Shown: positions 15,490-57,996, counted from the stretch's first letter. The stretch: 59,728 bases of DNA from a virus (IMGVR_UViG_3300042914_003096:1-59728), one strand, 5' to 3'. The notes: generated from the letters alone by a model not told the origin. Translations and numbers: made by a program.

Positions 15490-16410
15490 ATAGGCCGACC
15501 GAAAGGTTGACACACATAAAAAAAGTGAATTAACACCTCCCTTTCTTTAAGTGTTTAAATTATTAGGTCAATGGGCCGTGTATGGTCCATCCACTTCGGT
15601 GGCTTCTAACCTTCGGGTTAGTTGAAAATAAACTACGAAAGTAGGATAAAGTGAATCAGAAGTGTAACTGATTTGCGTCTTGGGAAACCGAGGTCGAGTA
15701 CACAAGCGGGATACCGTTTAATCTTTAGTACCGAGGGCGACGCTGTAGGGAAAGTGGTTAGATGATTGGGCGATGTGGGTCGTCTGATTGAGGTGGGAAC
15801 ACCAATAGGAATAACCCGTAGGAATTTTGCAAAAAATGTGGTTATCCAATCATATTATTGCGAGTTCCAATATTAAAGGAGACTTAAAACCGAAAGGTAT
15901 GTTGATGTACAGGTGGTGCTGTTATTAACCTTGACCGTTCCCCACCAAGGGATTGATCACGAAGTAGTCTTAAAATATGGAGATGGGGACATTTCAGAGA
16001 GTAGTTGAGTATCGACTCGTTCAAAAGATGGGTTGGCTCGTGGGCGGACCACTACTTTCACAATCCACGACACATAACTTATGGAAACTATTAATTCCCA
16101 AATTAAAAAGAGCATTAAGGAAAAGTGTCCGTCAGGTTTGAATGAAAGGTGACTACATAGTAATGAGCCGTTCATTGCACACAAAGATCCCAAGTCGATG
16201 TGTAATTATCCGAAAAACCTTTAGTCCCGCAAGGACGAACTGGGGAGGCATCCTCGGAAAGAGTCAAGTAAGGTGAGAGTAGTTCAAACCTCAAGGAGTG
16301 GTTCACCTAAATAACCGTCACTGAGAAATACTTCTCAAAAGGAAGTGGATAAGAGTAGAATAAATAATGACTCTAAAGGTTCTCAATAAAACGTGTAATC
16401 TCAGCGTTCT
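15490..16410 (+). ncRNA. Large structured non-coding RNA, ~900 nt (GOLLD-like candidate); ends approximate
   Basis: No credible ORF, raised GC, many tetraloop hairpins (CCAC-TTCG-GTGG, AACC-TTCG-GGTT, CTAC-GAAA-GTAG, ACC-GAAA-GGT, GTCC-CGCAA-GGAC); own promoter and terminator. Confidence 0.7.
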
Positions 16411-19606: not shown

Positions 19607-19666
19607 AATCATATGGTGTAATTGGTTAGCACAATGTTGGTATGGGTTTGAATCCCATTATGGTTT
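19607..19666 (+). ncRNA. tRNA-like RNA lacking the anticodon arm
   Basis: Acceptor AATCATA/TATGGTT, D arm TGGTGTAATTGGTTAGCAC, 9-nt linker, T arm ATGGG-TTTGAAT-CCCAT. Confidence 0.55.
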
Positions 19667-21025: not shown

Positions 21026-21466
21026 ATGCTTAAAAACGTAATATTAACGTTAATAGGAATATTTTTTTATTTAAATTCATTTTCACAAAATTATTTTCAA
21101 AAATATCAATCAGTTGCCGATAGTTTAGAAACAGTTTATGGTATACCATCTTCTGTTATTTTGGCAATTGCCTATTACGAATCTGGCGGTGGTAAAAGTG
21201 CCGTTGCAAAACATTCAAATAACCATTTTGGAATAAAAGGTAAAAACACAAAAGTAAATTCATCATACAAATACTATGAAAATGTATTACAATCATATGT
21301 TGGATTTTGTGGTGTGATAACCAGAAAAAAGTTCTACTCAAATTTAAAGGGTAATATTGATACTAATTTATGGGTCACATCAATATCAAATACAGGATAT
21401 GCTTCAAATGCAACTGCTTGGTCAAAAAAGATATTGGGTATAATAAAAACACAAAATTTAACATAG
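21026..21466 (+). CDS. GH73 glucosaminidase-type peptidoglycan hydrolase with signal peptide
   Basis: YGIPSSVILAIAYYESG, NNHFGIKG, GYA; hydrophobic N-terminus. Confidence 0.85.
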   Translation: MLKNVILTLIGIFFYLNSFSQNYFQKYQSVADSLETVYGIPSSVILAIAYYESGGGKSAVAKHSNNHFGIKGKNTKVNSSYKYYENVLQSYVGFCGVITRKKFYSNLKGNIDTNLWVTSISNTGYASNATAWSKKILGIIKTQNLT

Positions 21467-26056: not shown

Positions 26057-26130
26057 GCCCCTATGGTGGAATAGGTATACACGTCAGATTTAGGATCTGA
26101 ATTTTGCAGGTTCGAGTCCTGCTAGGGGTA
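26057..26130 (+). tRNA. tRNA-Leu(UAG) lacking the long variable arm
   Basis: GCCCCTA/TAGGGGT-A; TCAGA-TTTAGGA-TCTGA; 5-nt variable loop. Confidence 0.8.
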
Positions 26131-26241
26131 CTAAACTTTTTTTAATATCGATATATTTATAATAAAAATATTGATATGAAAAAAATTATAAGATTAACAG
26201 AATCAGATTTAACAAGGATTGTTAAACGTGTGATTAAAGAA
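26109..26241 (+). repeat. Direct repeat copy 1 (tRNA-Leu 3' end, promoter and 22 leader codons)
   Basis: 133 nt, near-identical to 26787-26919. Confidence 0.85.
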
Positions 26242-26786: not shown

Positions 26787-26919
26787 GGTTCAAATCCTGC
26801 TAGGGGTACTAAACTTTTTTTAATATCGATATATTTATAATAAAAATATTGATATGAAAAAAGTAATTAGATTAACAGAATCTGATTTAACAAGAATTGT
26901 TAAACGTGTAATTAAAGAA
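26787..26919 (+). repeat. Direct repeat copy 2
   Basis: GGTTCAAATCCTGCTAGGGGTACTAAAC...ATTAAAGAA. Confidence 0.85.
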
Positions 26920-28670: not shown

Positions 28671-28784
28671 AGTCAGGTGGCGGAATTGGTAGACGCAAAG
28701 ATGTTGTGAGTTGGTAGGTAATAACTACTTGGATAGTATCCACACTAGAACTCTCAAATACAGGTTCAAATCCTGTCCTGACTA
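28671..28784 (+). ncRNA. Leu-type tRNA-like RNA with the anticodon arm replaced by a branched domain
   Basis: AGTCAGG/CCTGACT-A, D arm GGCGGAATTGGTAGACGC, T arm ACAGG-TTCAAAT-CCTGT; insert GAGTT...AACTC encloses two hairpins. Confidence 0.65.
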
Positions 28785-29952: not shown

Positions 29953-30165
29953 ATGAAAATTAAATTAGGATTGTGGTGGTTGGTAGGCACCACAATTATT
30001 TACATCTACATTATGAATCTATTTTTCAATTACGTGATTAATAGGGAAGTTGATGAAATCCTACAAATCGGTGCAAGTTTTATAGCTTTAATTTACACTG
30101 CATTTCAAATAAAGCAAATAGTAAAAGAAGTAATAAATTTATTTAAAAAAGAAGAAAAAGAATGA
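29953..30165 (+). CDS. Small two-TM membrane protein
   Basis: Two hydrophobic segments; coupled to the SPFH gene. Confidence 0.6.
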   Translation: MKIKLGLWWLVGTTIIYIYIMNLFFNYVINREVDEILQIGASFIALIYTAFQIKQIVKEVINLFKKEEKE

Positions 30166-31064
30166 TTAGTGTAATTGTAACTGTAGTATTTTTGATCGTA
30201 GCAGGTGTTATGATCTTTAAATCAAGAATTGATGATGATAACGCGGCACTTGCAAAAGGGATTGTCGTTGGTGTTGTTGGTTTGGTAGTTGGTTTGATCC
30301 AACCTTATTCCCTTGAAAGAATTGATGCTGGACATAAAGGTATTGTTGTTAACCTTTCAGGATCTGAAAGAGGTGTATCTTCATACCAATACAAAACAGG
30401 TTGGGTTGTTTATAACACTTGGTTCACACAAGTTTTGGAGTTCCCAACTTATCAACAACATATTGAATATGATGATCAAATGGTAATAACAAAAGGAGGA
30501 TTTTCTGCAACAATTAAACCAAGTTTTAACTATTCATTAAAACCTGAAGCTATTGGTGATATGTTTGAAAATTTAAGATTGGGAGTTAAAGAAATTGAAC
30601 AAGGTTGGCTTAAAAATGCGATCATCGGGGCTGTTAATGACGTATCAAACACTTGGGAAGTGGATAGCATTTTTGGTCACAGACAGGCGTTTGAATCAAG
30701 TATCGTTGTTGAATGTAATAAAAGACTTGAAAAATGGTTTAACGTTTCACAACTTAGAACAAATATCACACCACCTGAAGCGTTACAAGAGGCAATTATT
30801 GCAAAAACCAAATCTATCCAACAAGCCGAAGCATCCGAACAACAAGCACTTGCGGCAATTGCGGATGGTAAAAGAAAGATCGCAGTTGCAAGAGCTGACT
30901 CGGCTGAAACTATCATTAATGCGAAGGCCGCCGCACTTGCAATGAAACTAAAACAACAAGAATTAACACCACTATATGTTGATTATGTTAAGGCTAACGC
31001 TTGGGATGGTAAACTTCCATCAACAATGACAAGTGGATCTGGAACATTTTTGAACATTAAGTAA
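30162..31064 (+). CDS. SPFH/Band 7/prohibitin family membrane protein
   Basis: N-terminal TM segments, RIDAGHKGIVV, Ala/Glu-rich coiled coil, C-terminal WDGKLP. Confidence 0.85.
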   Translation: MISVIVTVVFLIVAGVMIFKSRIDDDNAALAKGIVVGVVGLVVGLIQPYSLERIDAGHKGIVVNLSGSERGVSSYQYKTGWVVYNTWFTQVLEFPTYQQHIEYDDQMVITKGGFSATIKPSFNYSLKPEAIGDMFENLRLGVKEIEQGWLKNAIIGAVNDVSNTWEVDSIFGHRQAFESSIVVECNKRLEKWFNVSQLRTNITPPEALQEAIIAKTKSIQQAEASEQQALAAIADGKRKIAVARADSAETIINAKAAALAMKLKQQELTPLYVDYVKANAWDGKLPSTMTSGSGTFLNIK

Positions 31065-31813: not shown

Positions 31814-32084
31814 GCACCCGTAGCTCAGCTGGAATAGAGCAACTGCCTCAAATAGGGGGTGTTATATCAGAAATGGTATAATAGAATTCATCAAATTCGG
31901 GGAAGCCTTTAAAATGGTAATCCCGAGCCAAGCCCGAAAGGGAAGGTGTAGAGACTTGACGGTGAACACCTAAGTTGTAAAAAATAAGGTGATGAGAAAG
32001 TCCAGACCACAAACAGAAATGGCAGTGAAAACTGTAGTGGGAAGTCTAAGCAGTAGGTCCTTGGTTCGAATCCAAGCGGGTGTA
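31814..32084 (+). tRNA. tRNA-Arg(UCU) interrupted by a group I intron (exons 31814-31848 and 32045-32084)
   Basis: Joined exons give ACTGC-CT|TCTAA-GCAGT; acceptor GCACCCG/CGGGTGT. Confidence 0.85.
31849..32044 (+). ncRNA. Compact self-splicing group I intron (IC3-like), 196 nt, no ORF
   Basis: U.G pair in P1 (GCCUC/GGGGU), AAATTCGGGGAA, AATCCCGAGC, GTAGAGACT, AAAGTCC, terminal G. Confidence 0.85.
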
Positions 32085-32419: not shown

Positions 32420-33148
32420 ATGGACATCACAACAAAAGTTAGAAACTACAACGGTAAAAATTCTTTCATCTTGAAAATGAAAGATGCAGTTCAAAAATAC
32501 GGATCGCTAACCGCAAAACAGGCGGCGGCGACTGAAAAGATCCTTAATGCTGTTGTTGAGGCTAAATCTGTTGAAATGTCTGACGATATGAAAAAAATCG
32601 CAGCGTACGAGGGTAAAAACTCTTTTGTTTTGGAATTGAAGGGTAAACTTGAAAAGTACGGGAGCCTTACAGACAAACAAGTGTCGGCAGCACTTTCCCA
32701 AATCCAAAAAGAAGAAGACAAGGCCGCTACAGTTCATATGAACATCCCGGCTGTTGGTGATACAATCAAGATCGGTCGTAAGATAGGTCAGACACTTAAA
32801 GAAACTTACGGGTTGAAATTTAACCCAATCCTTTTGGATGTTACTAAGGTTCTTGCAATTTCACCTAAAGCTGTTAAATTCGCAGCAAAACTTACAATCA
32901 AAAGAGGATCCGTTTGTACTTGTTGTATGAAAACTTTAACAGACGAATTTTCAATGTTGACAGGACTTGGTAAGATTTGTGCTTCACACGTAGGAGTTCC
33001 TTACATCACTGACAAGTCACAAGCAGAATCGTTCCGTATCGAATATATGAAACGAGTTGATGAAATCGGTGAAATGGAACTATGGGTTCCTAAATCCCAA
33101 ATCAAAACTTGGGAAGGTACGGCAGACATCTTGTTGAAGATGGTATAA
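32420..33148 (+). CDS. Protein with two internal KYGSLTxKQ repeats and a DUF6011-like zinc finger
   Basis: NSF...KYGSLT.KQ twice; CTCCMKTLTD...GLGKICA; host-type promoter upstream. Confidence 0.6.
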   Translation: MDITTKVRNYNGKNSFILKMKDAVQKYGSLTAKQAAATEKILNAVVEAKSVEMSDDMKKIAAYEGKNSFVLELKGKLEKYGSLTDKQVSAALSQIQKEEDKAATVHMNIPAVGDTIKIGRKIGQTLKETYGLKFNPILLDVTKVLAISPKAVKFAAKLTIKRGSVCTCCMKTLTDEFSMLTGLGKICASHVGVPYITDKSQAESFRIEYMKRVDEIGEMELWVPKSQIKTWEGTADILLKMV

Positions 33149-33175
33149 AAAAAAGGGGTGTTAATCACCCTTTTT

Positions 33176-33784
33176 TTATTTTATATCTGTTGATTCAATC
33201 AAGGTATAACTAAACTTGTTACCATGAAGTTTTGAAGCCTTTTTACAAATTGACATGAATACATCAAAATCTTTTACACGTTTGAATACCTGACATCCCT
33301 CACTCCAATTTTCAACCCAAGTTGAATCAGTACCTGCTTTGTGGATATTGATACCAAACATTCCTGTATCCTTTTTTGTTTCTTCAAATACTAGATCTTT
33401 ATTTGCGTCTCTCCATACTGTAACGTTTCCGTTTCTTTGACAAAGTGCTTCGTACTTTCCTTGATGTTTATCAATTGACCATACTCCTCTGTATTGTCCA
33501 GGAACTAATCTTGCGACTCCGTTTTTGTTATGAAACTCCATAACACCTTTTTTACCTGGATCACAAGTTGCCATCCAGCAGTAAAACTGCCAAACACCTT
33601 TTTCATCTTTAAATGAAATTGTTAAATGATCGTCAAAGACATTTGTAACTTTTTTATATGTTGCAGGTGAAGTGTTTCTAACACCGACAATATTTACATC
33701 GTAACCTTTGTTTACGTTATCTTCAAACCAAACATACCCTTTTGATTTAACTGCCGTTTCTACTTGTTCTTTTGTGTAACTCAT
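33176..33784 (-). CDS. L,D-transpeptidase (YkuD)-like cell-wall enzyme
   Basis: GINIHKAG...WSEGCQ matches the His...SxGC catalytic motif; divergent from the lysis cluster. Confidence 0.6.
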   Translation of the reverse strand: MSYTKEQVETAVKSKGYVWFEDNVNKGYDVNIVGVRNTSPATYKKVTNVFDDHLTISFKDEKGVWQFYCWMATCDPGKKGVMEFHNKNGVARLVPGQYRGVWSIDKHQGKYEALCQRNGNVTVWRDANKDLVFEETKKDTGMFGINIHKAGTDSTWVENWSEGCQVFKRVKDFDVFMSICKKASKLHGNKFSYTLIESTDIK

Positions 33785-33860
33785 AACTTATAATTTTATT
33801 TATAAATATGTGTAAATCTTAAAAGTAAATAGTTTTTGATGTGTTGACATATTTATTATT

Positions 33861-35459
33861 ATGACAAATAACCGTAAGATATTATTATACTCATCATTAT
33901 TTTTGATGGTGGTATTCCTTTTAACTAAAATCACTATATTAATAGGAATTATTAACCCCAACACGGCAACTAGGGTTATTGAAATGTCTTGTTTTTTAAT
34001 ATTTTCACCAATATTTTATTTTTTAATAAAATTACAAACTGTTGAGTTAAAAGGTAATTTAATAAAACAAATTAAAGACAGTGAGGAGTTTATTGATGCC
34101 GCAACAATTGTTTCTGTTGCCGATAAGTACGGTAAGATTACCTACGTTAATAAAAAATTTGAAGAAGTATCGGGATGGTCATTGGATGAGGTTAAAGGTA
34201 AGGATCATAGTGTTGTTAATTCTGGATTACAACCTGACGGGTATTGGGGTAAGATGTATGAAACCGTAATGAAAGGTGAAATATGGAATGATGTTGTAAC
34301 CAATAAAGGAAAGTCAGGTGAGTTATATTATGTTGACACATACATCAAAGCAAAATTTGATAAGGAGGGTAAATTAGAAGGATTTTCATCAATTAGACAA
34401 GACATTACTGAGCTTAAGAAAAAAGAAGTTGACATTCGTAATAGAATGAATGCTATAAATAAATCTAACGCAGTTATTGAGTTTGATTTAGAAGGGAACA
34501 TTATTTTTGCTAACGACTTGTTTTTAAATACTATGGGTTATTCTTCTCAAGAAGAAATAGTAGGTAAACATCATAGAATTTTTATAGACGAAGACCACTC
34601 AAAAAGTGAAGATTATTCTCTTTTTTGGAAAAAATTAAATGAGGGTATATTATTTACAGGTGAAATTACTAGGGTTAAAAAAGACGGTTCTTTAGTTTAT
34701 TTACAGGCAACTTATAACCCTATTCTTGGATTGGATGGTAAAATTTACCGTGTTATGAAAATCGCAACAGATGTATCCAATTCGTATGAACAAAGAAAAG
34801 AGATTGAAAAGAAAAACACTTACTTAGAACACGCAGCAAAGATATTAAGACACGACATGCATTCAGGTATTAACACATATATGCCAAGAGGGTTAAGTTC
34901 ATTGGAAAGAAGATTAAGTACCGATGACATTAGTTCATTAAAAATTGAGGCACCTATTAGAATGATTAAAGAAGGGTTGAAACATTCTCAAAAAGTTTAT
35001 AAAGGTGTTTATGAATTTACCAACCTAGTTAAAAAAGATGTTGTGTTAAATAAAACTGAATGTAATTTAAAAAACATTTTAGAAGATTACCTGTCATCAA
35101 CAGCGTATAGTAGTCAAGTTATTATTGATGAGTTACCAACAATAGAAGTAAATGAAGCATTGTTTTGTACCGCAGTGGACAACTTAATTAGAAACGGTTT
35201 AAAGTATAATGATTCAGATACTAAGTTTGTTAAAATATATTCTGATGAAAATAATATTTATATACAAGACAATGGTAGAGGGATTACACAACAAGATTTT
35301 GATTACCTACGTAAACCATACGTAAGAAAAGAAGGACAAACAGAATCAGGTACAGGTTTGGGTTTAAATATTTGCGTTGCAATTTTAGAAGAACATGGGT
35401 TTAACATTACCTGTGAGAAAAATGAAATAGGGACAAAAATGAAAATAAAAATAAAATAA
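33861..35459 (+). CDS. Membrane PAS-PAS sensor histidine kinase
   Basis: Two N-terminal TM segments, two PAS/PAC domains, H box RHDMHS, N box NLIRNGLKY, QDNGRG, GTGLGL. Confidence 0.92.
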   Translation: MTNNRKILLYSSLFLMVVFLLTKITILIGIINPNTATRVIEMSCFLIFSPIFYFLIKLQTVELKGNLIKQIKDSEEFIDAATIVSVADKYGKITYVNKKFEEVSGWSLDEVKGKDHSVVNSGLQPDGYWGKMYETVMKGEIWNDVVTNKGKSGELYYVDTYIKAKFDKEGKLEGFSSIRQDITELKKKEVDIRNRMNAINKSNAVIEFDLEGNIIFANDLFLNTMGYSSQEEIVGKHHRIFIDEDHSKSEDYSLFWKKLNEGILFTGEITRVKKDGSLVYLQATYNPILGLDGKIYRVMKIATDVSNSYEQRKEIEKKNTYLEHAAKILRHDMHSGINTYMPRGLSSLERRLSTDDISSLKIEAPIRMIKEGLKHSQKVYKGVYEFTNLVKKDVVLNKTECNLKNILEDYLSSTAYSSQVIIDELPTIEVNEALFCTAVDNLIRNGLKYNDSDTKFVKIYSDENNIYIQDNGRGITQQDFDYLRKPYVRKEGQTESGTGLGLNICVAILEEHGFNITCEKNEIGTKMKIKIK

Positions 35460-35477
35460 AAAACAAAAAAAGAAAAA

Positions 35478-35915
35478 ATGATTGATTCAATTTTATTAGT
35501 AGATGATGAGGATTTATTCCACTTAGTGTTTGAAGATGCTTGTTCATTACTTGACATAAGTTTGTCTTTAAATGCCTTAAATAGTTCTGACGAAGCAGCA
35601 AAGAAATTTGAAAAATGGTTCAAAAGTGGGGATGATAACGATAAACCTGAATGTGTGTTTGTTGATTTAAACATCATTGGTAGTTCTTTTGATGGTATAG
35701 AACTAATTAGAAAAATTAATTTTGAATACGGTAATCACGTAGTTGTTGGGATCATATCATCATCAAATGAACCTGAAGAACAAGCAAAGGCAGTTCAGGC
35801 CGGAGCTCAATTTTGGATTATTAAATCTGACGACATTGAACCACGTTTAGAAGAATTTAGAAATGATTATGAAGGATATAAAAATAGAACACTACCATTT
35901 AAAGTTTACAAATGA
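35478..35915 (+). CDS. Stand-alone response regulator receiver
   Basis: LLVDDED, phosphoacceptor in VFVDLN, IISSS, WIIKS; no output domain. Confidence 0.9.
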   Translation: MIDSILLVDDEDLFHLVFEDACSLLDISLSLNALNSSDEAAKKFEKWFKSGDDNDKPECVFVDLNIIGSSFDGIELIRKINFEYGNHVVVGIISSSNEPEEQAKAVQAGAQFWIIKSDDIEPRLEEFRNDYEGYKNRTLPFKVYK

Positions 35916-36589
35916 TAAAAATAGATAATAATACTAAAAAGATTTTGATGGAGTTATATCTTAAAAAAGGTATAGGTCTTGAGGGTAATATTACTAAACT
36001 CATTGATACCGAAAATGATGAAGATTTTAAAAACTATTTAAAAGATTGTGAAACAAAAGACGGAGACAAAAGAAAAAAACGTCTTGAGATGACAAAAAAA
36101 ATACAAAAACAAAATGAAGAACTGATAACGTTAAATGAAAAAAACAAAGAAATGATGGAGGATCTTCAGTTCACATTAAAAGAAGCTGAAGAACAAAAAG
36201 TAAAAATTGAAGTTCAGAACGGAGAGTTAATCGCTTGGAGAGAAGAAAACGAAAAAATACAACAAGACCTACAAAGAGAAATGATTAATTCTGAAAGTGC
36301 AAGAATACAAGCGGAGGAGGCAAAAACAAACGCATTAAACGACTTGGATATACTCCAAAAAAGAAACCAAACAGAACTTATTTCAACGATTGTTAGAGTT
36401 GCTCTATACATTATTGTTGGTGTTGGATTTATCACAACAGGGGTTTATGTATTTACTATGATTATGGGTAAAGATACTCAAGTAATAAGCGCAGCTTGGT
36501 CTAACATATTTGGAATACTTTTAACAAACGCGTTTTCAATAGTCGGAACCATTATGGGTATTAAGTATGCAACAGAAAATAAACAATAA
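35912..36589 (+). CDS. Coiled-coil protein with two C-terminal TM helices
   Basis: Long E/K/Q-rich coil then two hydrophobic segments; translationally coupled to the receiver. Confidence 0.7.
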   Translation: MIKIDNNTKKILMELYLKKGIGLEGNITKLIDTENDEDFKNYLKDCETKDGDKRKKRLEMTKKIQKQNEELITLNEKNKEMMEDLQFTLKEAEEQKVKIEVQNGELIAWREENEKIQQDLQREMINSESARIQAEEAKTNALNDLDILQKRNQTELISTIVRVALYIIVGVGFITTGVYVFTMIMGKDTQVISAAWSNIFGILLTNAFSIVGTIMGIKYATENKQ

Positions 36590-36601
36590 AACTTAAAAAT
36601 T

Positions 36602-37429
36602 ATGTTATTAAAAGTAGGATCAAAAGGAACTGATGTTGTTGAACTACAAAAAAAACTCGGACTTACTGCTGATGGTAGTTTTGGTCCAAAAACTGAAGCA
36701 GCTGTTAAAGCTTGGCAAACAAAAAATGGATTAACTCCTGATGGAACAGTTACGTCGGCAAATAAAAGTTGGGACCTAATGTTTGGAACCAATTTAATAA
36801 AAGAAGATGTTGTAATTGCAAAAGTAGAAGGGTTAAACATAGATAAACTTAAAGGTCACATCCCTGATGTTGTTTTAGCACAAATAGCTGAAACTGCGCA
36901 GAAATTTAACATCACAACTAATTTAAGACTAGCACACTTTTTAGCACAATGTGCCCACGAATCAGGAAACTTTAAAGCCGTTTCAGAAAATTTAAATTAT
37001 TCTGCAGACGGACTAAGAAAAATATTCGGTAAATACTTTCCAAGCACACTTGCTGAATCATATGCAAGACAACCTGAAAAAATTGCATCAAGAGTATATG
37101 CAGATAGAATGGGTAACGGAAATGAAACATCAAAAGAAGGTTTTAAATTTAGAGGTAGAGGTTACATCCAATTAACCGGAAAATCAAATTATTCTAATTT
37201 TTCAAAATTTATTGGTGAAGATTGTGTTACAAATCCTGATCTTGTTGCTACTAAATATCCACTAGCATCGGCAGCATTTTTCTTTAACAATAATGGTCTT
37301 TGGGGTGTCTGTGACAAAGGATCTGATGATGTTACGGTAACCGCCGTTACAAAAAGAGTTAACGGAGGAACTAATGGGTTGGCAGACAGGGTAAAACACT
37401 TCAAAGAGTTCTTTAACCTACTTAAGTGA
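36602..37429 (+). CDS. Endolysin: peptidoglycan-binding domain plus GH19 catalytic domain
   Basis: LQKKLGLTADGSFGPKTEAAVKAWQ; FLAQCAHES, ENLNYS, FRGRGYIQLTG, RVNGG. Confidence 0.92.
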   Translation: MLLKVGSKGTDVVELQKKLGLTADGSFGPKTEAAVKAWQTKNGLTPDGTVTSANKSWDLMFGTNLIKEDVVIAKVEGLNIDKLKGHIPDVVLAQIAETAQKFNITTNLRLAHFLAQCAHESGNFKAVSENLNYSADGLRKIFGKYFPSTLAESYARQPEKIASRVYADRMGNGNETSKEGFKFRGRGYIQLTGKSNYSNFSKFIGEDCVTNPDLVATKYPLASAAFFFNNNGLWGVCDKGSDDVTVTAVTKRVNGGTNGLADRVKHFKEFFNLLK

Positions 37430-37464
37430 TATTTATTACAAAATAAACCATAAAAAATAATTTT

Positions 37465-37632
37465 ATGAAATTTACAAGAGAACAAGTTATGGGTGTGGTA
37501 AGACACACATTAACATTCTTAGGTGGTATTGCAATTGCTAAAGGATATGCTTCAGACGCAACTGTAACAGAAATAATCGGTGCAGTAGTAACACTTGTTG
37601 GTGCCGTTTGGTCAGTAATGGCAAAAAAATAA
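37465..37632 (+). CDS. 55-aa two-TM putative holin (not in ORF track)
   Basis: MKFTREQVMGVVRHTLTFLGGIAIAKG...IIGAVVTLVGAVWSVMAKK, directly after the endolysin. Confidence 0.7.
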   Translation: MKFTREQVMGVVRHTLTFLGGIAIAKGYASDATVTEIIGAVVTLVGAVWSVMAKK

Positions 37633-37656
37633 TTTTTTAGTTTAATTAATTTATGT

Positions 37657-37683
37657 AACCCCACTCAAAAGGTGGGGTTTTTT
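37657..37683 (+). terminator. Intrinsic terminator
   Basis: AACCCCAC-tcaaaag-GTGGGGTT followed by a T run. Confidence 0.8.
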
Positions 37684-37709
37684 AATTTAAATGATATTTA
37701 TAAATTAGT

Positions 37710-38318
37710 ATGGAAAATTTGACAGGGATCATAATTGCATTTATAACGGGAGTTATAGGTCCAATACTTGTAATGTATATTAAAAACAAACTTGAAAAAA
37801 AAGAAAAACCCGATATGGTTATGGACACACTTCGTGTAAGTGAGTTAATAAATTCAAAAATTGAACACATAAGAGAAGAATTTGATGCTGATCGTGTTTG
37901 GGTTACACAGTTCCATAACGGAGGAAACTTTTACCCGACAGGAAAATCAATGGCAAAATTTTCAATTATGTATGAGGCGGTAAATTCTGGAGTATCATCA
38001 GTTCAAACAAATTTTCATAACATTCCTGTAAATTTATTTTCTAAATCTATTAATCAATTATATAATAACGATGTGATTGAAATTCCTGATTATAAAGATG
38101 AAACAGTTGCGACTTTTGGTTTAAAGTATATTGCTCAAGATACAGGATGTAAGTCAGGTTATTTATTTGCAATTAAAACAATAGATGAAAAATTTATTGG
38201 AACACTTGGTCTTGATTATACAAAAAGAAAAACTAAGTTAGATATCGAAGCAATAAATCATCTTATGGTACACGCATCATCAATTGGAGGTGTACTTATG
38301 ACACACTTAGAAAAATGA
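37710..38318 (+). CDS. N-terminal TM plus GAF-like domain protein (T4 T-type holin architecture)
   Basis: TM at residues 5-24; EFDADRVWVTQFHNGG...FIGTLGLDY GAF-like pattern; adjacent to lysis genes. Confidence 0.55.
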   Translation: MENLTGIIIAFITGVIGPILVMYIKNKLEKKEKPDMVMDTLRVSELINSKIEHIREEFDADRVWVTQFHNGGNFYPTGKSMAKFSIMYEAVNSGVSSVQTNFHNIPVNLFSKSINQLYNNDVIEIPDYKDETVATFGLKYIAQDTGCKSGYLFAIKTIDEKFIGTLGLDYTKRKTKLDIEAINHLMVHASSIGGVLMTHLEK

Positions 38319-38971
38319 GAAAAAGTTTAATAATTGAAAATATCGTAAAAAAGATTACAAAAAATATACTTTCTGAAGGATCTTTAGATAAACCAATCCT
38401 TGATATATCAAGAGAAGTTATAAGGTTATTTAAAAATGAAGAAAGTGATGAGTTCACATATGTTTTTTACAGAAGTGGAGAAGAAATTCAACTTTTAGTT
38501 GAGGTTGATTTTGAAGTTGTGGAAAATCATAATGAACCTTTTGAGGTTTATGGAGAAGCTGGATATGATGAACTTTATGTACTAATAATATATGATCCAC
38601 AAGTATTTCCTTCCTCAATGAATGATTTGGTTGCTGAAGTTAAAGAAACAATAACTCACGAATTGGAACATATTGTGCAGCAAAATTTTGAAGATGCATA
38701 TATAAGTCCACATGAAAGTGATTACTCCCAAGACAAAAGAGGTGGTGGATTTAATTACTATGTTAAAAAAATTGAAATTCCTGCTTTTGTTAAAGGACTT
38801 ATAAAAAGGGCCCGTACCAAAAAGATAAGTTTGGATATGGCTATGGATGAGTGGTACAAAGAAAACCATAGAAACTTTGAAAATGAAAATGACTGGAAAG
38901 ACGTTAAAAGAATTTGGATTGATTATGCAAATGAAATGAGAAAAAAAGAAAAAGTTAAAAAATTCAAATAA
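38315..38971 (+). CDS. Zincin-like (HExxH) protein with leader motif
   Basis: ITHELEH plus downstream EIPAF. Confidence 0.6.
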   Translation: MRKSLIIENIVKKITKNILSEGSLDKPILDISREVIRLFKNEESDEFTYVFYRSGEEIQLLVEVDFEVVENHNEPFEVYGEAGYDELYVLIIYDPQVFPSSMNDLVAEVKETITHELEHIVQQNFEDAYISPHESDYSQDKRGGGFNYYVKKIEIPAFVKGLIKRARTKKISLDMAMDEWYKENHRNFENENDWKDVKRIWIDYANEMRKKEKVKKFK

Positions 38972-44402: not shown

Positions 44403-44723
44403 ATGAATAATTTAGATAAACAATACACAGATTTATTACAGGACATTTTAGATAATGGAGTTACAAAACAAGACCGTACTGGGACAGGAACGATTTCAGT
44501 ATTTGGAAGACAAATACGTCATAAAATGAGTGATGGATTTCCACTTCTTACAACAAAGAAGATGCCATTCCGTCTTATAGCAACAGAATTGTTATGGTTC
44601 CTACGTGGTGATACAAACATTAAATTCCTTGTTGATAATAATTGTCATATTTGGGATGGGGACGCTTACCAAGCGTATCTCAAAGAATGTGAAAAATTAA
44701 AAAAAGATGAGGAAAATATGTAA
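44403..44723 (+). CDS. thyA: Thymidylate synthase, N-terminal fragment
   Basis: [28 protein letters not shown]. Confidence 0.9.
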
Positions 44724-44761
44724 TTTTTATATCCATCACCATATTTATATAAAAAGAGAAT

Positions 44762-45484
44762 ATGGAAACAAAATATTATTTGTATATTAAAACAAGTCCG
44801 TTAGGGTTGAGATATCTTGGTAAAACAACAAAAGACCCAATCACCTATTTAGGTAGTGGTAAGATTTGGAAACGACACATTAAAAAACATAATTTTACCA
44901 TTAATGATATTGAAACGGAAATTGTTTTTGAAACAAATAATGTTGATGAGTTAATTAAAAAAGGTATAGAATTAAGTAATTTATATAATATTGTTGAATC
45001 AAAGGAATGGGCTAATTTAAGAGAAGAATCTGGTGATGGTGGAGATACTAGTAAGTTTATTGATTTTTCAAACCCATCTTTCCACAACTCAAATAGAAGT
45101 AAACATTTAAATATTTGGTTAAATGAAGTAACAGAAGAAGAAAGAAAAAAAATTCTAAGAGACAGAATTAGTAAAGTGAATTTTAAAGAAAGAGATAAAA
45201 AAACAAAAGAAAATACAGATTGGGATAGTTGGCGAGAATCTATCAAAAATAGGAAAACCGACTATTCTAAATTCTTAAACAAAGTACACGAAAAGAATAA
45301 AAAACCAGTATTACAGTTTGATATGGATGGTAATTTTATACAAGAATTTGATAGTGCTTCATCTGCCGCTAAATCATTGGGTTACGATAATGGTGGAAAC
45401 ATAACAAATTGTTGTAAAGGTAGGTGTAAATCTACTTTAGGTTATAAATGGAAATATAAAAATATAGAAAATGAAAGCAAATAA
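44762..45484 (+). mobile_element. GIY-YIG (Seg-like) homing endonuclease with C-terminal NUMOD1 HTH, inserted in thyA
   Basis: YLYIK...RYLGKT...YLGSG; KPVLQFDMDGNFIQEFDSASSAAKSLG...GYKWKY; own ATATTTAT motif. Confidence 0.85.
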
Positions 45485-46442
45485 AAAAGATTTACACGAA
45501 AGTGGTAGACCCCTTACACAAGAAGAGTTTATAAACAAAATCAAAACCAATGATGAGTTTGCTGAAAAATTTGGAGAATTGGGAAAAATTTATGGACATC
45601 AATGGAGAAGTTGGGAGCACAATACAGGTGATACTTGGACTGGGATGAAACACAACCAATCAATTAAAACCAAAATAGACCAAATCGCAAACCTAATCAA
45701 CGACCTTAAAACAAATCCAGACTCAAGACGTTTGATGGTTAATGCTTGGAATGTTGGAGAATTGGATTCAATGGTACTCCCACCTTGTCATTATGGATTT
45801 CAAGTTTATACAAGAGAGTTGAGTTTAAGGGAAAGAAATCTTTATTGGTATGGTAAAAATGGTAATACGGTTTTCCCAGAAGATAATATTGATAATGAAA
45901 ATTTAGATAAATTAAATGTTCCTAAACGAGCAATCTCTTTAATGTGGAATCAACGTTCAGTAGATACATTCTTAGGTTTACCATTCAATATTGCATCTTA
46001 TGGATTGTTATTGGAAATAATTGCTAAAGCAGTTAATATGGTTCCAGATGAATTAATTGGTAACTTGGGTGATACACATTTATATTTGAATCACATTGAA
46101 CAAGCAAAGGAACAGATTGGTAGAGAATTGAGTTTGGAAGAAAGAAATGAAATTCATAAGAATCTTGCTGGACATATGAGATATCACATTGATAAACTTG
46201 ATTTGTTAAAAAAAATAGACTATAGTGGTGATTTAATTACACACGAAATTTTAGATGAGTTAGATGTTCCGAAAAGAAAACGACAACCATATCCATTACC
46301 TACATTGAAGATAAATTCAGGAAATGAAAATTGGCATTTGTTAGAAATCGACGAAGTCATTAATAGCTTAGATCCTGATATTACTTTTAAAGTAGAGAAC
46401 TATCAATCACATCCAACAATTAAAGCACCTTTAAGTAATTAA
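45471..46442 (+). CDS. thyA: Thymidylate synthase, C-terminal catalytic fragment
   Basis: LGKIYGHQWR, PDSRR, LPPCH, QRSVDTFLGLPFNIASY, GDTHLYLNH. Confidence 0.92.
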   Translation: MKANKKDLHESGRPLTQEEFINKIKTNDEFAEKFGELGKIYGHQWRSWEHNTGDTWTGMKHNQSIKTKIDQIANLINDLKTNPDSRRLMVNAWNVGELDSMVLPPCHYGFQVYTRELSLRERNLYWYGKNGNTVFPEDNIDNENLDKLNVPKRAISLMWNQRSVDTFLGLPFNIASYGLLLEIIAKAVNMVPDELIGNLGDTHLYLNHIEQAKEQIGRELSLEERNEIHKNLAGHMRYHIDKLDLLKKIDYSGDLITHEILDELDVPKRKRQPYPLPTLKINSGNENWHLLEIDEVINSLDPDITFKVENYQSHPTIKAPLSN

Positions 46443-52232: not shown

Positions 52233-52940
52233 ATGAAACAGAGAATAACTTTTATTAGTGATACACACACCAAACACAATAAGTTGACAGAATTTCTACC
52301 TGGTGGAGATATTCTTATTCACGCAGGTGATCTTACAAGTAGAGGTTATGAAACTGAAATTGAAAATTTTATGTGGTGGTATAATAAAATCAATAACTAC
52401 AAACATAAAGTTTTTATTGCAGGAAATCACGACTTTGGATTTCAAGATGATAATGAAAAGATTCGTGAAAATATTAAAAGTTATGAAACCATAACTTACT
52501 TGCAAGACGAACTACTTGTTCTTGGTGAAGGTGAAGTTGAATACATCGATATGATTAAAATATGGGGTAGTCCTTGGCAGCCCGAATTTCATAATTGGGC
52601 ATTTAATCTTCCTCGTGGTGAAGCTTTAAAAGAAAAATGGGATTTGATTCCTATTAACACTGATATTCTTATTACACACGGACCGGCATTTGGTAAGTTA
52701 GATTATGTGCCTTTTAGTAATTTGAATGTTGGTTGTGAAGAATTACTAAAAAGAATTCAAGAAATTAAACCTAAAATTCACTGCTCAGGTCATATTCACG
52801 AGGGTAGAGGTTATGTATTTGATGGAGACACTCATTATATAAACGCATCTGTTTTGAATGGTAGATATGAATATAGAAACAAACCAATAACTGTCGATTG
52901 GGACAGTGTAACTAACGAACTTGAGTTTATTGAAGAATAG
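52233..52940 (+). CDS. Calcineurin-like metallophosphoesterase
   Basis: SDTH, HAGD, AGNHD, THGP, GHIHE. Confidence 0.9.
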   Translation: MKQRITFISDTHTKHNKLTEFLPGGDILIHAGDLTSRGYETEIENFMWWYNKINNYKHKVFIAGNHDFGFQDDNEKIRENIKSYETITYLQDELLVLGEGEVEYIDMIKIWGSPWQPEFHNWAFNLPRGEALKEKWDLIPINTDILITHGPAFGKLDYVPFSNLNVGCEELLKRIQEIKPKIHCSGHIHEGRGYVFDGDTHYINASVLNGRYEYRNKPITVDWDSVTNELEFIEE

Positions 52941-56929: not shown

Positions 56930-57346
56930 ATGAATAGTTTAAAAAATACAGTAATAGACGAAAAGATTTTGTATATTGTTAGGGGAATCCCTGGTAGCGG
57001 CAAATCAACATTTGCAAAACAACTTACATCAAACGTGTTTGAAGCTGATCATTATTTTATTGATAATGAAGGTAATTACAATTTTGACCCATCTAAAATT
57101 AAAGACGCACATAAAGATTGTCAAGATAATGTAAGATATGCAATGGAGTCAAGTATTACAAAAATTGCAGTATCAAACACATCAACACAAGAATGGGAAC
57201 TACAACCATACTTTGAATTAGCTGAAAAATATGGATATACTGTGTTCAGTGTTGTTGTTGAAAATAGACACGAAGGTGTAAACCAACACGGAGTTCCTGA
57301 AGATAAATTAGAATTAATGCGTAACCGTTTTGAAATAAAATTATGA
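56930..57346 (+). CDS. P-loop kinase (AAA_33 / polynucleotide kinase-like)
   Basis: RGIPGSGKST, EADHYF, VSNT, HGVP. Confidence 0.8.
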   Translation: MNSLKNTVIDEKILYIVRGIPGSGKSTFAKQLTSNVFEADHYFIDNEGNYNFDPSKIKDAHKDCQDNVRYAMESSITKIAVSNTSTQEWELQPYFELAEKYGYTVFSVVVENRHEGVNQHGVPEDKLELMRNRFEIKL

Positions 57347-57996
57347 GTTTTAAAAAATTATTAACGTCAGGAAAAGTATGGATTACATCCGATACACACT
57401 TTGGACATAAAAATATTGTGCGAGGTGTTACAAACTGGCGTACGCAAGAAGGTGAAGTACCGGTTAGTTCAACAAGGGATTTTCAAACAATTGAACAAAT
57501 GAATAATCGACTTGTTGATGGTATAAATAATGTTGTTGGTCAGGATGATACACTTATTATGCTTGGTGATGTTTCATTTGGTGGGTTTGATAATATTGGA
57601 ATTTTTCTTGAAAGACTGGTTTGTCATAATATTCATTTGATACTTGGAAATCACGATCACCACATTGAAAATAATCGTGACTATGTGCAAGGAAGGTTTT
57701 TAAGTGTCCAACACTATCTTGAAGTAAACATTGAAGGTAAAGATTTTGTTTTATGTCATTATCCACTCCAAAGTTGGCACGGACTTAACAAAGGTGTTAT
57801 TCATCTTCACGGACACGTACATCTATCTGAAAACAATAAATTTGGTAATGGAAAAAGAATGGATGTTGGTGTTGATGGTAACGGAATGGACCCTTACAGT
57901 ATTTTCGATATCATTAAAATTATGGATAAAAGACCGATTGGATCTGATATGACAAATGATCATCACTTGGATGATTTGATTGGTGTTGTGGGTTAA
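57343..57996 (+). CDS. Calcineurin-like metallophosphoesterase
   Basis: SDTHFGH, LGD, GNHD, CHYP, HGHVH, DVGVD. Confidence 0.88.
   Translation: MSFKKLLTSGKVWITSDTHFGHKNIVRGVTNWRTQEGEVPVSSTRDFQTIEQMNNRLVDGINNVVGQDDTLIMLGDVSFGGFDNIGIFLERLVCHNIHLILGNHDHHIENNRDYVQGRFLSVQHYLEVNIEGKDFVLCHYPLQSWHGLNKGVIHLHGHVHLSENNKFGNGKRMDVGVDGNGMDPYSIFDIIKIMDKRPIGSDMTNDHHLDDLIGVVG

Follow-up and report, generated by a model that had tools for sequence, protein, structure and literature searches.

We describe a gene module in a stretch of DNA of an uncultured giant phage from lake water, taken from the IMG/VR collection (IMGVR_UViG_3300042914_003096; 59,728 bases, hereafter the window), which encodes a histidine kinase, a single-domain receiver, a membrane protein with two transmembrane (TM) segments that we call the hairpin protein, an endolysin and a small holin. 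On balance we consider it probable, from comparison of sequences, that a phage-encoded sensor relay with a redox-type, FAD-PAS-like input acts on this membrane effector of the lysis cassette and times lysis. The features are collected in Table 1, and all eight open reading frames (ORFs) on which the original prediction for this region was built are present where it had placed them.

To follow receiver and hairpin protein through related phages, we compiled 377 viral loci from collection searches with the kinase, the hairpin proteins and their fused forms. A complete hairpin was found by tblastn in 365 of these loci, giving 195 distinct hairpin peptides. A receiver gene lies directly upstream in 133 of them, 53 are part of long fused proteins, five are arranged in another way and four are cut by the contig end. 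Among the hairpins with another arrangement, those of loci L316, L318 and L339 have a receiver 1.1–1.8 kb upstream. The relay form, with its separate receiver, is kept in loci of 29–57% GC, the receivers being 64–84% identical to that of the window, and the locus search with the most divergent hairpin (P0221) returned one locus. The comparison shows the predicted receiver and the predicted hairpin protein to be a fixed pair.

The fused forms were examined with a profile of the last 85 residues of the hairpin protein, which was searched against 1.84 billion cluster representatives (50% identity) and matched 110 proteins at E ≤ 0.001 and 81 at E ≤ 1e-10. When the 78 hairpin-family representatives of at least 100 residues were scanned for domains, five were found to have sensor domains N-terminal of the coiled coil and hairpin, in the order GAF–coiled coil–hairpin (P0127), PAS–PAS–coiled coil–hairpin (P0153) or PAS–coiled coil–hairpin (P0146, P0129 and P0226). 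The first PAS domain of the fusion is 46–49% identical to residues 178–319 (PAS2) of the kinase, and the first ~96–115 residues of the hairpin protein have no counterpart in the fusions. No receiver homologue was found in any of the five records with a fused form, three of which are at least 91% complete and two of which are complete 120-kb genomes, and all ten records searched contain exactly one hairpin gene. In a FastTree phylogeny of 191 distinct hairpins (the four cut rows being left out) the architecture changes twice, in a tree whose resolution is low because the alignment has only 85 columns. Sensors fused to the hairpin where the receiver is missing are the classic sign of separate proteins that act in one pathway. 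The hairpin would be the output, and the receiver, together with the N-terminal part of the hairpin protein, takes the place that the fused sensor has elsewhere. As a separate observation, P0134, P0151, P0138 and P0212 show N-terminal matches to SOUL heme-binding, GT2, TsaD and PDH_C fragments; these could reflect genuine fusions or chimeras of gene calling and were not counted as fusions.

The hairpin protein, a membrane protein encoded beside the endolysin, consists of an N-terminal part of ~155 residues, two TM segments (residues 156–174 and 199–217) with a loop of ~10 residues and a short C-terminus, and the pair of TM segments is predicted to be N-in/C-in. Its E/K/Q/L-rich middle part is variable, and conservation is found in an N-terminal motif (residues 20–31), in a basic patch (53–60) and above all in the second TM segment, which is polar, contains glycine and is nearly invariant. 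With a cytoplasmic receiving end, a dimerising helix and two TM segments, this layout would be that of a sensor-to-output wiring with a membrane output. No Pfam or PHROG family was found for the protein, the best Pfam match being Phage_holin_9 at E 0.22, and a PDB search with its first 63 residues gave nothing meaningful. The original prediction had named this coiled-coil protein as the likely target of the receiver. Its part as the constant gene partner, fused to PAS or GAF domains elsewhere, is borne out. These fusions, the pairing of the two genes and the overlap of their stop and start codons, which would couple their translation, lead us to infer that the receiver contacts it. Three complex predictions of the receiver with residues 1–80 of the hairpin protein, run without controls, scored 0.01, 0.47 and 0.01 and were used neither way.

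It is also conceivable, if unlikely, that the hairpin protein itself is a sensor-gated holin, whose oligomerisation would be licensed by the phospho-receiver or the fused sensors, the Pam3-type holin being a second or accessory one. Its gene is located at the usual holin position directly 5' of the endolysin gene (with a gap of 12 nt in the window and of 14–103 nt in G006, G007 and G001), the two TM segments, the short loop and the character of the second segment would suit such a role, and a search for Phage_holin_10 gave no match in three fused-form genomes of at least 91% completeness. However, small ORFs with one to three TM segments beside the fused hairpins of L180, L203, L150 and L152 could be holins, and the window has a recognised holin with a promoter motif of its own. 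In addition, the hairpin shows no homology to holin families, with none of the 78 scanned representatives matching one, and its length of 225–370 residues and extended cytoplasmic portion set it apart from most holins. Because of the small TM ORFs and the holin of the window, we tentatively favour the hairpin protein as a regulator of hole formation, either antiholin-like or holin-activating, rather than as the sole holin.

The GH19 endolysin and the small holin of the original prediction were both recovered by Pfam models above their cut-offs. The endolysin, a predicted cytoplasmic protein, matches GH19 (PF00182) with 36.1 bits at a cut-off of 25.5, PF01471 with 42.3 bits and the endolysin family phrog_181 at 2.6e-70, and the adjoining 55-residue holin reaches 62.9 bits for PF23987 at a cut-off of 27. 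For the relatives, a homologue of the GH19 or YkuD-fold enzyme of the window, or of the M15 or GH108 enzymes of the relatives, was counted as a hydrolase match when it was located within 2.1 kb. Hairpins were regarded as assessable if they had such a match or if the sequence extended for at least 2.1 kb on each side of them, and 25 hairpins without this room were left out. A hydrolase accompanies 71 of the 111 assessable relay hairpins (51 GH19, 12 YkuD-like, seven M15 and one GH108) and 44 of the 50 fused hairpins (30 GH19, nine YkuD-like and five M15), and after clustering at 90% identity this applies to 30 of the 41 clusters of the window's own clade and to 19 of the 22 clusters of PAS–PAS fusions. 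HMM scans of negative-scored loci for extra families yielded M15_3 and GH108 as well as SLT, YkuD_2 and Amidase_2, and one complete 120-kb genome carries a phrog_7 endolysin together with a YkuD-like gene 7 nt upstream. The enzyme is located downstream or upstream of the hairpin gene or is divergent from it. Along the hairpin tree the family of the adjacent hydrolase changes at least 19 times, rows without hydrolase or without room being excluded from the count, and 200 label shuffles gave a mean of 32 and a minimum of 29 changes. Three records of 272–304 kb with a completeness of at least 91% have a single full-length GH19 gene each, whose start lies 14–103 nt after the single hairpin gene. 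The comparison shows both predicted forms, relay and fused, sitting beside interchangeable cell-wall hydrolases. The linkage of kinase and receiver to lysis genes across relatives, on which the original prediction had been made to depend in advance, is kept in most of them.

Several observations weigh against a general role in lysis. None of the four hydrolase families is present within 2.1 kb of 40 of the 111 assessable relay hairpins and six of the 50 assessable fused hairpins. In divergent loci a wall enzyme was found by Pfam within 3 kb in only four of 14 sampled cases, with dUTPase, glutaredoxin and DNA polymerase among the neighbours, and L183, L186 and L207 are clean negatives, the fused locus L186 being placed among replication genes. 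L255 and L260 carry the hairpin protein with no receiver match in the locus, and no family of holins or antiholins is significantly similar to the hairpin. In one complete genome a Pam3-type holin lies 0.9 kb from the endolysin, and in another it is 36 kb from the hairpin; this latter distance, together with the lack of a Phage_holin_10 match in the three fused-form genomes, leaves the holin unsupported as a fixed partner. Furthermore, all loci come from related uncultured phages, so that the counts overstate independence. The link to lysis weakens in divergent lineages and is less general than the window's own clade suggests.

Relay and hairpin could also control another envelope process such as superinfection exclusion, the upkeep of membrane potential or wall remodelling, their adjacency to lysis genes then reflecting shared timing or an inherited gene order. 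The lack of a hydrolase in ten of the 14 sampled divergent loci and in L186, L183 and L207 would fit, as would the surroundings in the window, which are otherwise full of accessory genes and tRNAs, and the presence of an SPFH membrane protein within a few kb in relatives. We nevertheless regard such a process as improbable, since the adjacency persists through the 19 or more swaps of hydrolase family and through changes of side and strand, holds for both architectures and for phages of 120 kb as well as of ~290 kb, and goes along with a predicted co-transcription with endolysin and holin in the window. Whether the timing of lysis can be extended from the window to a whole class is a matter on which we are evenly divided: many uncultured aquatic phages may carry an undescribed class of lysis regulators, in which a two-TM hairpin is set by cytoplasmic PAS or GAF domains, either fused or wired through His–Asp transfer, and times the burst by redox or energy state.

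The kinase had been predicted as a TM–PAS–PAS histidine kinase with its catalytic residues in place, and the domain order and the boxes of its catalytic domain bear this out. Its HATPase_c domain (PF02518) scores 54.5 bits at a cut-off of 26.4, the N, G1 and G2 boxes align with those of HK853, and the stretch around H331, a putative H box by its likeness to the motif, is invariant across 53 homologues; no Pfam model of the DHp/HisKA type matched. By its sequence PAS1 fits the FAD-binding type of PAS sensor, with matches to MmoS (3ewk, 2.3e-24), Aer (8dik, 3.3e-17) and NifL (2gj3, 1.6e-8); the likeness concerns the PAS1 sequence, and flavin binding by the phage domain is only predicted. PAS2 weakly resembles LOV domains (~1e-5 to 1e-4), and what we take to be the LOV cysteine motif was not seen on reading its sequence. 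Because the loop between the two membrane segments is only short, the kinase most likely senses inside the cell. Given this cytoplasmic position and the resemblance of PAS1 to the FAD-PAS domains of MmoS, Aer and NifL, it is reasonable to infer that the input is the redox or energy state. The original prediction had offered host redox or energy state or superinfection as the signal; the former remains plausible, and nothing speaks for the latter. In many relatives a second or third kinase gene lies between the first kinase and the lone receiver, where several kinases may feed one receiver, and in some relatives' kinases a GAF domain replaces the membrane anchor.

The receiver matches Response_reg (PF00072) with 34.6 bits at a cut-off of 30.2 and has no output domain by Pfam. 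D9, D10, D63, S94–96 and K116 are invariant in 67 sequences, in agreement with the proposed receiver with intact catalytic residues and no output domain. Its nearest solved chains are the single-domain regulator 3ilh (8.7e-6) and RphyB (4zyl, 9.7e-4). With a mean identity to the window of 0.88 it is the most conserved of the three proteins, followed by the kinase (0.75) and the hairpin protein (0.66). Single-domain receivers often act on diverse partners, and kinase and receiver might mainly interfere with two-component systems or motility of the host, the membrane protein serving as an anchor. PMC10714779 reports on a protein with which a phage disturbs two-component systems of its host. We consider such an interference very improbable for the module described here, since the fused forms drop kinase and receiver and retain sensor and hairpin, and since DHp region and receiver share a high degree of conservation, as would be expected of a dedicated kinase–receiver pair.

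According to the original prediction, kinase, receiver, coiled-coil protein and endolysin form one motif-led run. This agrees with a ATATTTAT promoter-like motif in front of the kinase gene and a first terminator only after the holin gene, no terminator-like site being present on the + strand between 33177 and 37657. The motif occurs 30 times in the window, 16 times of these at most 45 nt upstream of a start codon and in the right orientation. Among the distinct upstream sequences of relatives, 20 of the 34 for the kinase gene have TATTTAT 11–12 nt from the ATG and all 14 for the holin gene contain it, compared with three of 40 for the endolysin, none of 62 for the receiver and none of 64 for the hairpin gene. 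The placement of the motif, the terminator sites and the overlap of the receiver stop with the hairpin start support one predicted unit of kinase, receiver, hairpin and endolysin, which would read into the holin gene and end after it. Elsewhere in the window the 48 nt before ORFs 26176 and 26854 are identical including ATATTTAT, which makes them a duplicated promoter-leader segment (26128–26178 and 26806–26856).

The relay that we propose would start with the kinase, which might read the redox or energy state of the host in the cytoplasm and phosphorylate D63 of the receiver. The phospho-receiver could then dock on the N-terminal region of the hairpin protein, from where the coiled coil would carry the signal to the N-in/C-in hairpin, altering the association of the hairpin in the membrane. 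Depending on whether the hairpin has an antiholin-like or a pro-holin role, hole formation by the holin would be delayed or triggered, and the timing of the hole would set the moment at which the endolysin reaches the wall.

Table 1. Features of the relay and lysis module and its borders; positions are counted from the first base of the window.
Feature	Position	Strand	Remarks
Hairpin terminator common to the converging genes 32420-33148 (+) and 33176-33784 (-)	33149-33177	both	
YkuD-fold (L,D-transpeptidase / L,D-peptidase-like) cell-wall enzyme	33176-33784	-	divergent from the kinase operon
ATATTTAT promoter-like motif	33802-33809	-	before the YkuD-fold gene
ATATTTAT promoter-like motif	33849-33856	+	12 nt before the kinase ATG
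Membrane-anchored PAS-PAS histidine kinase	33861-35459	+	by Pfam, hydrophobic segments and HK853 alignment
Kinase, TM segments and PAS domains	residues ~13-31 and ~39-57 (TM), ~75-190 (PAS1), ~195-310 (PAS2)		
Kinase, catalytic motifs	residues H331 (H-box-like motif), 441-450 (N box), 470-475 (G1), 497-502 (G2)		
Single-domain receiver	35478-35915	+	D63 acceptor; conserved 25-residue C-terminal tail
Hairpin protein	35912-36589	+	coiled-coil-like middle and two TM segments; start overlaps the receiver stop (ATGA)
Endolysin, PG_binding_1 and GH19	36602-37429	+	without signal or TM segment
ATATTTAT motif	37429-37436	+	36 nt before the holin ATG
Small holin, Pam3 gp28 family	37465-37632	+	Phage_holin_10, PF23987
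Intrinsic terminator after the holin gene	37657-37679	+	first + strand site beyond 33177
ATATTTAT motif	37694-37701	+	16 nt before the 37710 gene; kept in 7 of 14 relatives
N-terminal-TM protein with a 170-residue mixed alpha/beta domain	37710-38318	+	no family match
218-residue protein with HExxH motif	38315-38971	+	start overlaps the preceding stop; module membership uncertain

Among the neighbouring genes, the divergent one had been described as encoding a YkuD-like enzyme, which its AF2 model (pLDDT 84) and a VIA comparison bear out. YkuD-fold chains make up 43 of the 45 listed rows (Z 9.0–5.8, the next row being at Z 2.8), with Z scores of 9.0 for Pgp2, 8.7 for Csd6 and 8.1 for YkuD, and H148 and C164, presumably the YkuD catalytic pair, are invariant in 30 sequences. 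As modelled, the product of the divergent gene is a YkuD-fold protein. It matches the 'endolysin' families phrog_3000 and phrog_33083. No Pfam match was obtained even at E 10, a PDB sequence search gave only nanobody noise, an Atlas search returned unnamed viral clusters only, and Foldseek alone found nothing below E 0.001.

The protein encoded from 37710 had been labelled as a TM-GAF protein, a label that we could not substantiate. No GAF match (PF01590, PF13185) was found up to E 10, hhalign against six phage GAF domains gave a probability of 0.2, a PDB profile search with an alignment of 16 close homologues gave one noise match at E 1.9, and the AF2 model from the same alignment is poor (pLDDT 42). 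The sole lead in favour of the label, which remains unconfirmed, comes from a language model, the protein scoring 0.96 in the Atlas to a viral cluster in which 44% carry PF01590. It has 4804 relatives, and among the 120 listed all are at least 81% identical and without Pfam domains. The single TM segment is followed by a lysine-rich flank, which by the positive-inside rule suggests a cytoplasmic location of the domain. A T4 T-like holin was considered for this protein and rejected, as there is no family match and the charge flanks suggest the opposite topology. The protein stays paired with the following 218-residue HExxH protein in several relatives.

The window, with an estimated completeness of ~21%, has a GC content of ~30% and contains 15 tRNA genes. 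The module is flanked by genes for DNA methyltransferases, a split thymidylate synthase, phosphoesterases and homing endonucleases, and no structural genes were seen among the recognisable genes around it. Related contigs reach 290–304 kb at an estimated completeness of 99–100%, and lake-water metagenomes from at least 17 studies, a possible source sample being left out, contain near-identical DNA, with no RNA run among those listed. In the GenBank phage collection the match is confined to the endolysin part (66–75% identity) and involves Flavobacterium, Cellulophaga and uncultured huge phages. On the related contig L118 a 735-residue protein with a PKD and a CHU_C type IX secretion sorting domain is encoded next to the module (498–2705, - strand), and this sorting domain hints at a Bacteroidota host.

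Several further elements were observed in the window and its relatives. A full-length GOLLD RNA (RF02032) is located at 15997–16407 (+) with 333 bits at a gathering score of 150, and a group I intron match (RF00028, 80 bits) at 31839–32026 (+) lies among the tRNA genes, between tRNA-Asp and tRNA-Phe. Two extra Rfam tRNA matches that are not in the ARAGORN list are present at 19607–19666 and 28671–28784, the latter with a span of 114 nt that may represent an interrupted tRNA. The thymidylate synthase (44403–46442) is split into an N-terminal part (44403–44723) and the remainder (45471–46442) by an ORF for an HNH endonuclease (44762–45484), and no Rfam intron at the gathering score was found in this region. 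An SPFH/Band 7 membrane protein (PF01145, phrog_200) is encoded at 30162–31064 (+), and a homologue lies within ~5–6 kb of the hairpin gene in many relatives. A 146-residue protein (21026–21466, +) matches endolysin families weakly (phrog_12727 at 1.3e-9, among others); encoded at a distance from the cassette, it may be another protein that lyses or binds the wall. In the relatives L101 (9596–11812) and L118 (10082–12343) the stretch 3' of the relay encodes an AAA_33 kinase-like protein and a metallophosphoesterase as well as a cREC receiver (PF20274) and a HAD_SAK_2 RNA-repair domain; phosphoesterase and kinase-like genes resembling these are found in the window at 52233–52940 and 56930–57996.

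To our knowledge, the choice of lysis time is understood in only a few model phages, in which holin accumulation, membrane potential and superinfection are the known inputs. In full-text searches of the literature we found no description of a phage two-component system tied to lysis or of sensor-fused lysis membrane proteins. In a comparison of 224 jumbo phages, only a divergent receiver was noted, never linked to histidine kinases, in the available portion of PMC7824862. If the proposed relay is real, two-component control of a lysis clock would be without precedent, and so would a viral two-component pathway whose viral target is defined. The relay would add a layer of information processing to the lysis decision, give the histidine kinases of large phage genomes a defined job and provide a modular, signal-gated membrane effector for study. 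With the module being abundant and found in lake-water metagenomes, the burst timing of these phages could also matter for the turnover of freshwater bacteria.

The nearest functional analogue is T4, with the holin T and the antiholins RI (periplasmic) and RIII (cytoplasmic), the components being phage-encoded in both cases. In T4 lysis inhibition a signal-dependent protein acts on the hole former and sets the time of lysis (PMC11413866 and PMC8385771). T4 reads its signal in the periplasm through proteins that bind each other directly, whereas the module described here would use cytoplasmic PAS or GAF sensors, a His–Asp phosphorelay and, in the membrane, a hitherto undescribed hairpin with two TM segments, and no Pfam match to the T4 T, RI or RIII families was found in its proteins. 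The original prediction had ascribed a GAF-like domain to T4 holin T, for which we found no backing; the term GAF does not occur in PMC11413866. The protein encoded from 37710, with its predicted cytoplasmic domain, would also differ from holin T in topology.

In Staphylococcus, the LytSR two-component system controls the holin/antiholin-like lrgAB genes and resembles the phage module in linking a two-component system with holin-like membrane proteins. LytSR belongs to a bacterium and works at the level of transcription, using a regulator that binds DNA, whereas the phage receiver, which has no output domain, most likely targets a protein. According to PMC8805020, both CidA and LrgA function as holins. 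With CheY-type receivers and those of phytochrome operons, the phage receiver shares the intact acidic pocket, the acceptor Asp, the Ser/Thr and the Lys. In CheY-type systems the partner is a motor switch or a kinase, whereas here receiver and partner are phage-encoded and the fixed partner is the predicted membrane hairpin protein. The holin S21 of phage 21 is a two-TM (class II) holin that also has an antiholin form, and holins of this type resemble the hairpin protein in the predicted N-in/C-in pair of TM segments, the short loop and the adjoining endolysin gene. The hairpin protein shows no homology to them and adds a cytoplasmic N-terminal extension of ~155 residues, which would be its putative signal receiver.

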